NCBI GenBank assembly: GCA_018399375.1
Contig: JAGYOV010000001.1
Span: forward strand, 1-27,537
Origin: Dehalococcoidia bacterium
GTDB taxonomy: Bacteria > Chloroflexota > Dehalococcoidia > GIF9 > AB-539-J10
DNA: 27,537 nucleotides
Direction of reading: 5' to 3'
The notes under the pieces were generated by a model. That model did no database searches and was not told the DNA's origin. It worked only from the letters and a program-made list of their open reading frames with translations. The position numbers were made by a program, and so were the translations under genes. Shown here in pieces: positions 218 through 27,184 of the stretch (position 1 is the stretch's first letter; each line of letters starts with the position of its first letter).

Positions 218-1405
218 ATGTATATAGAGAGTCCCAGGTATACAGAGCGCTTTGGCTCAGTCAGAATGAATCACCCACAAGCAGTAGTAGCGCTAGATTC
301 AGGAATGAAGAGTGAGCTGCCCCCATATGGTGCCATGGGAGTAATGAAGGTAGACGAGGAAACGATAAAACACTTTGAGAATAAGATGGCCATCGTTATT
401 CCCATCAAGGATGAGAAACTCAAACTCTTCGAGGGAGTAATAAGTGGTGTACCGCATGACTGCATGATAATAACGGTATCCAACAGCCAGATAGAAAAGA
501 TCGACAGATTCAGAATGGAAGGAGACGCTCTAAACCAAATTTGTCGTTATACCTCTAGAGAAGCACTGATCATCCATCAAAAAGATCCCGCTATTTCAGA
601 AGCTCTGGCAGAAGCTGGCTACGAAGACTTGCTCGGTGAAGATGGGCTGGTGCGCGATGGCAAGTGCGCAGCCATGATGATAGGAATGCTCATGGCCAAA
701 GTGGCAGGCAAAGAATATGTTGGCTTTGTCGATGCCGATAATTATTTCCCTGGTGCGATACTGGAGTACGTTCGGAATTATGCTGCGGGTTTTAGCATGG
801 CCAAGTCAGATTACAGCATGGTGAGAATATTATGGCGATATAAACCCAAACTATCAGCCGGCCTGTATTTTAAAAAATGGGGGAGGGTATCAGAAGTCAC
901 CAATAAATATATGAACTCACTGATCTCCAGTAAAATAGGATTTGAAACCGAAGTAGTAAGGACAGGCAATGCAGGAGAGCACGCTATAAGCATGAAGTTA
1001 GCAGAGACTCTGCCCTATGCTGCCGGATATGCTGTGGAGCCACAAGAGCTGATCTCCATCTTTGAGAACTTTGGAGGAATTCTACCTACCAGGGACCGCA
1101 AAGCAATGGAGCAAGGAGTAGATATATTCCAAATTGAAACCAGAAACCCTCACCTCCATGAAGAGAAAGGAGATGAACATCTCAAGGGCATGCTCCTGTC
1201 GGCCCTGAGCACCATTTATCATTCCCCCCTATGCGATCAAGATTTAAAACAGGCAATTCTCTCAGAACTCACCTCCCAGTCAATTATCAAGGAAGGAGAA
1301 GAGCCTCCTCCCTTACACATTACTCCCGCTCCTAAGAAGATGGATATCAAGAAATTTGTCGCAGCCATCAAGGAAGACTTCAATAGTTACAGTGCGCTAC
1401 AATAA
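218..1405 (+). CDS. mpgS: Mannosyl-3-phosphoglycerate synthase (GT55 family), stand-alone
   Basis: N-terminal TERFGSV..LDSG, IVIPIKDEKL..FEGV.SGVPH, GKCAAM.IG, YVGFVDADNYFPG, KKWGRVSE, GNAGEHA, YAVEP, IETRNPHLHEEKG are typical of MPG synthases. Start moved from TTG 200 to ATG 218 because AGGAGG lies at 205-210. Confidence 0.9.
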   Translation: MYIESPRYTERFGSVRMNHPQAVVALDSGMKSELPPYGAMGVMKVDEETIKHFENKMAIVIPIKDEKLKLFEGVISGVPHDCMIITVSNSQIEKIDRFRMEGDALNQICRYTSREALIIHQKDPAISEALAEAGYEDLLGEDGLVRDGKCAAMMIGMLMAKVAGKEYVGFVDADNYFPGAILEYVRNYAAGFSMAKSDYSMVRILWRYKPKLSAGLYFKKWGRVSEVTNKYMNSLISSKIGFETEVVRTGNAGEHAISMKLAETLPYAAGYAVEPQELISIFENFGGILPTRDRKAMEQGVDIFQIETRNPHLHEEKGDEHLKGMLLSALSTIYHSPLCDQDLKQAILSELTSQSIIKEGEEPPPLHITPAPKKMDIKKFVAAIKEDFNSYSALQ

Positions 1406-1422
1406 AGTAAAGCTATAAATAG

Positions 1423-25935: not shown

Positions 25936-25939
25936 TACC

Positions 25940-27184
25940 ATGAACATACGAGAGGATGCCCGAGAAATCATTTGCGAAGCCATCAAAGCAGTATTACCCG
26001 AGTCCAGTACCAAAGAAGCGCTAGATGGCATTGAAAGCCAGGGAGCTATCAGAATCATAGCTATAGGAAAAGCCGCCTGGCGAATGGCCTGGGCAGCACG
26101 GGAGAGCTTGCAGAACAGGATCTCTGGCGGCATTGTTATAACGAAGTATCAACACTCACAAGGAGACATCACGGGATTCGAAATAATTGAGGCAGGTCAT
26201 CCCATACCTGACAACAACACCATCCGGGCTACAATGAGAGCTATCAGAATGGTGGAAGATATCAAAAGCAAAGACCTTTTACTATTCCTGGTTTCTGGAG
26301 GAGGATCATCTCTATTCGAACTTCCAGATGGAAAAGTTACTCTCGAGGAGCTGATAACCATCACCGACCAGCTTGTGAAATCTGGAGCAAGCATTTCAGA
26401 GATAAATGCGGTGAGGAAACACCTCTCTCAAGTTAAGGGAGGACGCTTTGCCGAAATGGTCAGACCCGCCAGGATATTTACACTTGCTCTCTCCGACGTT
26501 CTGGGCGACAGGCCAGATACCATTGCTTCAGGCCCCACCTTCCCCGACAGCACCACCTGTGAAGAAGCACTGGCAGTAATAAAGAAATATCAAATCGTTA
26601 TTTCATCTGAAGCCCTGGATGCCCTAAAGCGAGAGACGCCAAAACATCTGGACAACGTGACAACAAAGATAATTGGCAACTTATCCCTAGCCTGCAAAGC
26701 CGCAGCGCAAACTGCAGAGAATCTCGGGTACAATACAACCATAGCAACGACGACTCTGGATTGTGAAGCTCGCGAAGCGGGAGCTTTCCTGAGCGCCGTG
26801 GCACGCGAGATCATTTCGAGAGACCGCCCATTGCCAAAACCCTGTGCCATTATTGCAGGGGGAGAAACCATCGTCCACGTAAAAGGGAAAGGGTTGGGTG
26901 GCAGAAATCAGGAGTTAGCTCTTTCCGCTGCCCGGGGCATAGAAGGGCTGAACAACATCATAATAGCTTCTGCTGCCACCGATGGTACAGATGGCCCCAC
27001 TGATGCGGCGGGAGGAATTGTAGATGGAGAATCGATAAAACGCATGAAGGAACAGGGCTATAATGCAGAAGATATGTTGAGAAATAACGACGCTTATCGA
27101 GCGCTTGAAGCTGCAGGAGACCTGTTAAAAACGGGGCCAACGGGCACCAACGTTAATGACCTGACGATACTTTTGTGTCGGTGA
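25940..27184 (+). CDS. Glycerate kinase, GckA/TtuD (DUF4147 + MOFRL) family
   Basis: IGKAA..MA, EAGHPIPD, LVSGGGSSL, N.VRKHLS.VKGGR, SDV.GD....IASGPT, GGET.V...G.G.GGRNQE, TDG.DGPTDAAG, TGPTGTNVND. Confidence 0.92.
   Translation: MNIREDAREIICEAIKAVLPESSTKEALDGIESQGAIRIIAIGKAAWRMAWAARESLQNRISGGIVITKYQHSQGDITGFEIIEAGHPIPDNNTIRATMRAIRMVEDIKSKDLLLFLVSGGGSSLFELPDGKVTLEELITITDQLVKSGASISEINAVRKHLSQVKGGRFAEMVRPARIFTLALSDVLGDRPDTIASGPTFPDSTTCEEALAVIKKYQIVISSEALDALKRETPKHLDNVTTKIIGNLSLACKAAAQTAENLGYNTTIATTTLDCEAREAGAFLSAVAREIISRDRPLPKPCAIIAGGETIVHVKGKGLGGRNQELALSAARGIEGLNNIIIASAATDGTDGPTDAAGGIVDGESIKRMKEQGYNAEDMLRNNDAYRALEAAGDLLKTGPTGTNVNDLTILLCR

Follow-up and report, generated by a model that had tools for sequence, protein, structure and literature searches.

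The stretch of DNA analyzed here (the window, 27,537 bp) is an entire contig of a Dehalococcoidia metagenome-assembled genome (MAG; 1.08 Mb in 230 contigs, 89% complete), which the best matches of its proteins assign to Dehalococcoidia/Dehalococcoidales, and it encodes an enzyme of glycoside hydrolase family 38 (GH38). This enzyme belongs to a clade whose link to mannosylglycerate (MG) biosynthesis is strongly supported by other genomes. The most probable explanation (about 0.6) is that it is a cytoplasmic enzyme specialized for the breakdown of the cell's own MG, or an immediate derivative of it, with release of glycerate, and the sequence data make the clade the best candidate yet for an MG-degrading enzyme in producers. 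To our knowledge, the only characterized hydrolases of free MG are GH63 enzymes of a few bacteria and one plant. The original prediction for this DNA was that the GH38 enzyme could turn over the cell's own MG together with a nearby glycerate kinase. Co-occurrence and operon structure speak for this idea, whereas proximity in the window, kinship with Escherichia coli MngB, and a universal presence of the kinase do not.

Co-occurrence was analyzed in an evenly drawn sample of 401 Dehalococcoidia genomes. Their GH38 matches were bimodal: members of the subfamily of the window enzyme showed ≥39% identity and ≥440 bits (27 genomes), whereas distant GH38s showed ≤33% identity and ≤281 bits (65 genomes, including the unpublished G322, on which alone no claim depends). 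The gene for mannosyl-3-phosphoglycerate synthase (mpgS) was found in 38 of the 401 genomes, being present in 26/27 subfamily genomes versus 12/374 others. The single subfamily genome lacking it (86% complete) has congeners that carry mpgS. In the 65 Dehalococcoidia genomes with only distant GH38s, mpgS was never found. When all 96 Archaeoglobi genomes were examined, mpgS was present in 29/29 subfamily genomes versus 5/67 others. The original prediction had staked itself on such co-occurrence, and it came through decisively in both groups. Co-occurrence outlives the loss of gene linkage, because in genus g90 the GH38 gene and mpgS are neighbors in two genomes (G383 and G371), whereas in five others more than 400 kb separates them. 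The two genes are scattered in the window's own genus as well.

Gene order was compared in 80 loci from 78 genomes, which were retrieved with the window GH38 protein alone (one genome per species was searched) and onto which the proteins of the window and of its own genome were mapped to call neighbors. mpgS was present in 61 of these 78 genomes. The most constant neighbor was a gene of the mpgP (mannosyl-3-phosphoglycerate phosphatase) family, located immediately upstream on the same strand in 40/80 loci with a median gap of 7 bp. mpgS lay within three genes of the GH38 gene in 31 loci, and mpgS or mpgP was present in 51. The linked loci span Methanomicrobia/ANME-1, Archaeoglobi, Syntrophoarchaeia, Bathyarchaeia, Nitrososphaeria, Aenigmarchaeota, Woesearchaeota, WOR-3, and Dehalococcoidia. 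The commonest order, mpgS–mpgP–GH38, was observed in ANME-1/Methanophagales, Archaeoglobaceae, Syntrophoarchaeum, Bathyarchaeia, one Methanobacteriaceae MAG, and one WOR-3 bacterium, and in Archaeoglobaceae it extends to a contiguous mpgS–mpgP–GH38–glycerate kinase cluster (L074–L078 and L081). In close Dehalococcoidales relatives, the GH38 gene is convergent with mpgS–manC–asnB–mpgP–CN-hydrolase, and in others it lies beside a fused MgsD-type synthase/phosphatase. The phosphatases next to GH38 pass the TIGR01486 model, and several also pass TIGR02461.

In a tree of 99 sequences (GH38 subfamily members, E. coli MngB, and five other Dehalococcoidia GH38s), 93 sequences formed one clade (SH-like approximate likelihood-ratio test value of 100; stem of 1.33 substitutions per site). 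The clade takes in the window enzyme and the paralogues represented by a second, truncated GH38 of the same genome (C60:2–1981, − strand, 45% identical to the window enzyme), and leaves out MngB and the five other Dehalococcoidia GH38s. Almost all subclades contain members with MG genes beside them. Active-site residues were surveyed in an alignment of 92 subfamily members and six outgroup GH38s, MngB included, and are numbered according to the window enzyme. The metal ligands and the nucleophile (His9, His11, Asp13, Asp123, His323, and Asp324) are invariant in 92/92 members and common to the six outgroups, and the window enzyme keeps the HxHxD and HD (metal) and DxFG (nucleophile) motifs. The invariants specific to the subfamily include Lys105, Arg146, Arg177, and Lys577, and 141 of the 848 alignment columns are at least 97% conserved. 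The window enzyme has no leader peptide, its catalytic motif begins at residue 9, and it is predicted to be cytoplasmic. Judged from its sequence, it is a GH38 enzyme by fold and nucleophile that is missing one defining catalytic feature, described below, and it does not qualify as an MngB equivalog.

The features of the window that bear on this system are as follows.

218–1405, + strand: mpgS, mannosyl-3-phosphoglycerate synthase, monofunctional, 395 aa (PF09488, 507 bits)
13430–24216, no strand assigned: variable segment with usp, polX, ligA, DUF72, GNAT, CN-hydrolase, and GH38 genes (tblastn synteny map)
20598–21305, + strand: stand-alone CN-hydrolase, a nitrilase-superfamily amidase (PF00795, 125.6 bits)
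21302–23848, − strand: GH38 family enzyme, 848 aa (PF01074, PF09261, PF07748, and PF17677)
24217–25935, + strand: RecN (TIGR00634, 531 bits)
25940–27184, + strand: class II glycerate kinase, DUF4147 + MOFRL (PF13660, 265 bits; PF05161, 134 bits)

The three genes of the original prediction (mpgS, GH38, and glycerate kinase) lie where it had placed them, and their family assignments are confirmed by Pfam and TIGR matches. MpgS matches the TIGR02460 equivalog over its full length (residues 4–384; 520 bits against a cut-off of 351), and all four Pfam domains of the GH38 enzyme, covering the catalytic N-terminal, middle, and C-terminal parts, exceed their cut-offs. The predicted start of the GH38 gene, ATG at 23848 rather than GTG at 23992, was also right, because homologue alignments begin at residues 1–4 of the 848-aa form. 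mpgP is found on a separate contig of the same MAG, directly after manC (C157:4496–5182; 276 bits against a cut-off of 244, TIGR02461/TIGR01486). By family assignment, the genome encodes a complete ManC–MpgS–MpgP route to MG. A GH63/MGH1-like hydrolase was not found in this genome.

Eighteen housekeeping genes, among them uvrD, 3-hydroxyacyl-CoA dehydrogenase, speE/speD, lysS, serS, thyX, polX, and ligA, separate mpgS from the GH38 gene. Two genomes of the same genus, G193 (locus L101) and G244 (loci L098 and L099), were compared with the window by tblastn. Both are syntenic with it from mpgS, which adjoins uvrD in all three, to thyX and again at recN–glycerate kinase. In G193, recN–glycerate kinase follows directly after thyX, and the 13.4–24.2 kb stretch of the window is absent. 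The only GH38 gene of G193 and G244 is of the C60 type, with PNPase, NAD kinase, and NUDIX genes around it; relative to this shared paralogue, the window-type copy seems to have arrived later. The nearest relative bearing a cluster (L011) matches the window at the nucleotide level only over a 3.3-kb module of CN-hydrolase and GH38 (78.5% identity), and no remnant of mpgP, manC, or asnB was found beside the window CN-hydrolase. The proximity of GH38 to recN–glycerate kinase is a lineage-specific rearrangement, because G193 lacks the segment and the match to L011 is limited to this module. The 27-kb proximity of the three genes, on which the original prediction leaned, was rejected as functional evidence: G193 and G244 have no GH38 at this site, and the adjacency of recN and glycerate kinase is older. 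The conserved mpgS–mpgP–GH38 cluster is absent from the window, with mpgP on another contig, and the window shows in dispersed and rearranged form a system that archaeal operons display more clearly. In G244, ~9 kb of unrelated DNA lies between the glycerate kinase and ArsP-like genes, a variable spot amid conserved synteny.

Several observations weigh against MG breakdown by the window enzyme. The general acid/base of Streptococcus pyogenes SpGH38 is Asp232, in a G-x-D motif (PMC2815779). In 92/92 subfamily members, the canonical acid/base position is Gly208 (preceded by Ser207), giving G-S-G in place of G-x-D, whereas the six outgroup GH38s have D/D/D/D/E/D. We take Asp341 of dGMII to be the general acid/base equivalent to that of SpGH38. 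Pairwise HMMER alignments to 3LVT, 6LZ1, and 7UFT gave the same result at this position, although no close solved structure is available (best Protein Data Bank [PDB] match, E = 3e-42). Plain hydrolysis to mannose and glycerate, as originally predicted, is consistent with the retained nucleophile and metal site, but it is not assured because glycine occupies the acid/base position in all members. A retaining hydrolase of this kind should be poor on an unactivated aglycone, and the true reaction of the clade could be something other than hydrolysis. Transcribing a hydrolase together with the synthase would lead to a futile cycle in the absence of post-translational control. In the window itself, mpgS, GH38, and glycerate kinase do not form an operon, and mpgS is 20 kb from GH38. 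Moreover, mpgP–GH38 pairs occur in 0.5–1.0 Mb DPANN genomes without a detectable PF09488 synthase. Conversely, the GH38 enzyme is not obligatory for MG producers, because 12 Dehalococcoidia genomes with mpgS lack the subfamily, three of them complete (1.4–1.5 Mb). Finally, related genomes are not independent and 2 × 2 tables overstate significance, so the co-occurrence is given as counts without P values (both genes, subfamily alone, mpgS alone, and neither: 26, 1, 12, and 362 in Dehalococcoidia; 29, 0, 5, and 62 in Archaeoglobi).

Here, we propose a pathway for MG turnover based on these assignments. ManC would provide GDP-mannose, MpgS would convert it to mannosyl-3-phosphoglycerate, and MpgP would dephosphorylate this product to MG. 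The GH38 enzyme would then cut the mannose–glycerate bond in the cytoplasm, and the missing acid may be supplied by the carboxyl group of the substrate or by a relocated residue. Because the metal ligands and nucleophile are kept, the acid/base is glycine, and invariant Arg and Lys residues have been gained, the chemistry of the clade is probably adapted to a carboxylate-bearing aglycone. The MOFRL kinase would turn glycerate into 2-phosphoglycerate, which could enter glycolysis or yield 3-phosphoglycerate, the acceptor of MpgS. A ROK kinase encoded elsewhere in the genome (contig C159) could rephosphorylate mannose. Futile cycling would be avoided by control of enzyme activity, not of transcription. 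A comparable design is found in Synechocystis, where the glucosylglycerol hydrolase GghA is encoded beside ggpS and ionic control of the enzyme activities probably determines how much solute accumulates. In both cases, a solute-degrading gene stands beside solute-making genes, but the solute, enzyme family, and organism differ, and the analogy is one of design only.

The glycerate kinase gene starts 4 bp after recN in the window. The best NCBIfam matches of its product are glycerate 2-kinases, with scores below the equivalog cut-offs (NF041176, 279 against 550; NF040791, 225 against 670); these scores place it in the DUF4147 + MOFRL family only and leave its 2-phosphoglycerate regiospecificity as a prediction. 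A PF13660 kinase is present in 16/27 subfamily genomes versus 24/374 others in Dehalococcoidia. It directly adjoins GH38 in Archaeoglobaceae (eight loci) and in three further genera of Dehalococcoidia (G419, G086, and G406). The kinase is enriched with the GH38 subfamily and repeatedly linked to it, yet not universal. For the glycerate-recovery step of the original prediction, support is thus partial, with the kinase in 16 of the 27 subfamily genomes.

The loss of the acid/base may also be read as a change of reaction. It is possible, though unlikely, that the GH38 enzyme acts on MG not as a plain hydrolase but as a retaining phosphorylase or transglycosylase. In the phosphorylase version, MG and inorganic phosphate would give α-mannose-1-phosphate, feeding ManC directly, and glycerate, with the anionic cosubstrate replacing the acid/base. 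The Asp-to-Gly replacement in 92/92 members with retention of the nucleophile and metal site, the new invariant basic residues (Lys105, Arg146, Arg177, and Lys577), and the occurrence of manC within Dehalococcoidales clusters would all fit, and phosphorolysis of a sugar-glycerate has a precedent in the GH13_18 glucosylglycerate phosphorylase. On the other hand, we know of no GH38 phosphorylase, the retaining phosphorylases known to us keep their acid/base, and the case is purely inferential. Sugar kinases do not separate hydrolysis from phosphorolysis: neither a ROK nor an ADP-dependent sugar kinase was found in the ANME-1 genome G013, and the latter was not found in any of the five subfamily genomes checked, but ROK kinases are present in 4/5 of these genomes and in the window's own genome, so that free mannose could be salvaged. 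The substrate rather than the reaction may differ, and we regard it as quite improbable that the true substrate is a neighbor of MG, either mannosyl-3-phosphoglycerate (as a pathway check) or a mannosyl compound from hosts or partners. The MpgP-like phosphatase and GH38 would then form a two-step salvage module instead of a producer's recycling loop. E. coli MngB does work on phosphorylated MG, mpgP is the neighbor found most often (40/80 loci), and mpgP–GH38 pairs without a PF09488 synthase occur in 0.5–1.0 Mb DPANN genomes and small bacterial genomes. These synthase-less genomes are, however, small and incomplete, and another synthase type may serve, as an MGS_GT-type transferase lies upstream of mpgP in a Woesearchaeota locus. 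Most lineages have the full synthase–phosphatase pair, and adjacency of the glycerate kinase fits either reading.

The two remaining explanations deny MG breakdown altogether. The enzyme would be an ordinary cytosolic α-mannosidase for oligomannosides or glycan recycling, lying near MG genes by chance or through shared GDP-mannose metabolism, if its generic public annotation ("alpha-mannosidase") were taken at face value; its separation from mpgS by 20 kb and a series of housekeeping genes, and the unrelated neighbors of some ANME-1 copies (MCP and trpA), would agree with this. We consider it very unlikely, given that mpgP adjoins GH38 in 40/80 loci across more than eight phylum-level groups and that the co-occurrence (26/27 and 29/29) is specific to the subfamily (0/65 for genomes with other GH38s). 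The loss of the acid/base also argues against a general mannosidase. Least credible is the view that the protein has lost catalysis and binds MG, serving as a sensor or regulator or as a chaperone for the synthetic enzymes. The clade-wide absence of the canonical acid/base and the co-transcription with synthase genes could be taken that way, but the nucleophile and all metal ligands are kept, the 141 highly conserved columns indicate an active site under selection, and adjacency of the glycerate kinase implies that glycerate is released.

Two further genes suggest a branch of the pathway through mannosylglyceramide, a neutral amide derived from MG and found in Rhodothermus (PMC1224877). In the window, the CN-hydrolase and GH38 genes are tail-to-tail with a 4-bp overlap at the GH38 3′ end. 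CN-hydrolase orthologues adjoin GH38 in 15/80 loci (Dehalococcoidales, ANME-1, and Nitrososphaera). Among 80 Dehalococcoidia genomes, orthologues with at least 44% identity are confined to G000, G132, G178, and G190, always within a few bases of GH38; all other matches among the 80 are CN-hydrolase domains of ~580-aa NAD synthetases. In Dehalococcoidia, the pair is always tail-to-tail, overlapping or 0–70 bp apart (window; G132:C21, G178:C36, and G190:C287), and in ANME-1 the CN-hydrolase follows GH38 co-directionally. An AsnB-like amidotransferase gene forms part of the Dehalococcoidales operon and is also found close to ANME-1 clusters, and the window's own genome carries one at C82:293–1690 (− strand). 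Among the same 80 Dehalococcoidia genomes, it was found in 15/38 with mpgS versus 1/42 without, the one being the incomplete G190, and it adjoins mpgS in at least seven genomes. Further copies were found in L096 (12332–13954), L097, and L083 (4846–6513).

The AsnB-like protein passes the generic asparagine synthase model and could be plain AsnB. Because the gene is restricted to mpgS genomes, a role in the solute pathway is suggested, and the protein is a candidate mannosylglyceramide synthase, with mannosylglyceramide as the obvious candidate product. We did not find a paper naming a gene for mannosylglyceramide synthase in the open literature. With a modest chance of being correct, a two-tier system can be drawn in which the AsnB-like protein makes mannosylglyceramide, the CN-hydrolase reverts the amide, GH38 degrades the MG, and the glycerate kinase recovers glycerate. 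In such a system, the free carboxyl group of the glycerate would serve GH38 as its catalytic acid. Degradation would then be limited to solute whose amide has been removed, and the amidase would therefore gate catabolism. In ANME-1 locus L022, two closely related GH38 subfamily genes lie 8 kb apart (9959–12583 and 20170–22581), one after mpgS–mpgP and the other after an AsnB-like gene. In Nitrososphaera (L087:2156–3292 and L088:1532–2671), a GAPDH gene precedes mpgP–GH38, the CN-hydrolase is convergent, and mpgS was elsewhere in the genome or not found.

Among known systems, MngB (EC 3.2.1.170, encoded in mngR–mngA–mngB) is a member of the same family with the same four-domain architecture as the window enzyme. 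Its substrate is a mannosyl-glycerate, glycerate is a product, and its metal ligands and nucleophile align with those of the window enzyme. Nevertheless, it is only 24% identical to the window GH38 and lies outside the 93-member clade, so the two are not relatives in any close sense. The window enzyme scores 326 bits against the MngB equivalog NF007331 (cut-off, 1138). MngB keeps the acid/base Asp (NGHDQ) where the window clade reads SGSG, and it acts on 6-phosphorylated MG imported by a phosphotransferase system in a nonproducer, whereas the genes of the window clade accompany those for biosynthesis in producers. The GH38 enzymes of known structure from Enterococcus (3LVT and 5KBP) and S. pyogenes (SpGH38, 2WYH), together with Ams1 (6LZ1), are the best PDB matches (E = 1e-37 to 1e-42) and share the HxHxD, HD, and DxFG motifs. 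They carry the acid/base Asp (Asp232 in SpGH38; PMC2815779) and act on glycan α-mannosides, whereas the window clade lacks this residue. The GH63 enzymes MgH (Thermus thermophilus, Rubrobacter radiotolerans, and Selaginella) and mycobacterial GgH hydrolyze the organism's own sugar-glycerate to hexose and glycerate (PMC5381378). This is the same physiological role as that proposed for the window GH38, but the fold and family are unrelated. We know of no report of MgH genes as operon partners of mpgS or mpgP.

Within our incomplete coverage of the literature, no paper was found that links the GH38 clade to mpgS/mpgP or notes its missing acid/base. A discrete, widespread GH38 clade tied to a biosynthetic operon is a concrete candidate for MG turnover in ANME-1 methanotrophs, Archaeoglobi, ammonia-oxidizing Nitrososphaera, DPANN archaea, and organohalide-respiring Dehalococcoidia. 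With the acid/base lost throughout, the clade lends itself to testing for substrate-assisted or other unconventional catalysis in GH38, and the AsnB-like and CN-hydrolase genes are the first candidates open to testing for the synthesis and hydrolysis of mannosylglyceramide. The annotation "alpha-mannosidase" steers metabolic reconstructions toward mannan or glycan use where osmolyte recycling is probably all that takes place.

Other features of the loci and genomes were as follows. Pairs of mpgP and GH38 without a PF09488 gene were observed in Aenigmarchaeota (L054–L056, L065, and L069), Woesearchaeota (L042 and L049), and small bacterial bins (L018, L020, and L023), a pattern that another type of synthase or the salvage of host solute could explain. 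The MGS_GT-type glycosyltransferase upstream of mpgP in Woesearchaeota is at L049:1104–2321. Some ANME-1 copies of GH38 have unrelated neighbors such as MCP and trpA, and the neighbors L21e, ArgRS, TrpA, MCP, ParA, class III aminotransferase, and KaiC-like ATPase were set aside as lineage-specific synteny. In L067 (9956–12793), G498 (C16:935–3459), and G319 (C18:12724–15111), the subfamily gene is split into two open reading frames or has an internal stop, which could mean pseudogenes or errors of assembly. In four Archaeoglobales-type loci (L068:6752–7906, L029, L072, and L073), the gene directly upstream of mpgS encodes a DUF401 polytopic membrane protein, a possible solute transporter. Downstream of the glycerate kinase in L074–L078 are genes for DUF72, a GGACT-like protein, an MBL-fold hydrolase, and a 5-FTHF cyclo-ligase-like protein. 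DUF72 and MBL homologues are also present in the window (18438–19175 and 10591–11229, respectively), which is probably a coincidence.

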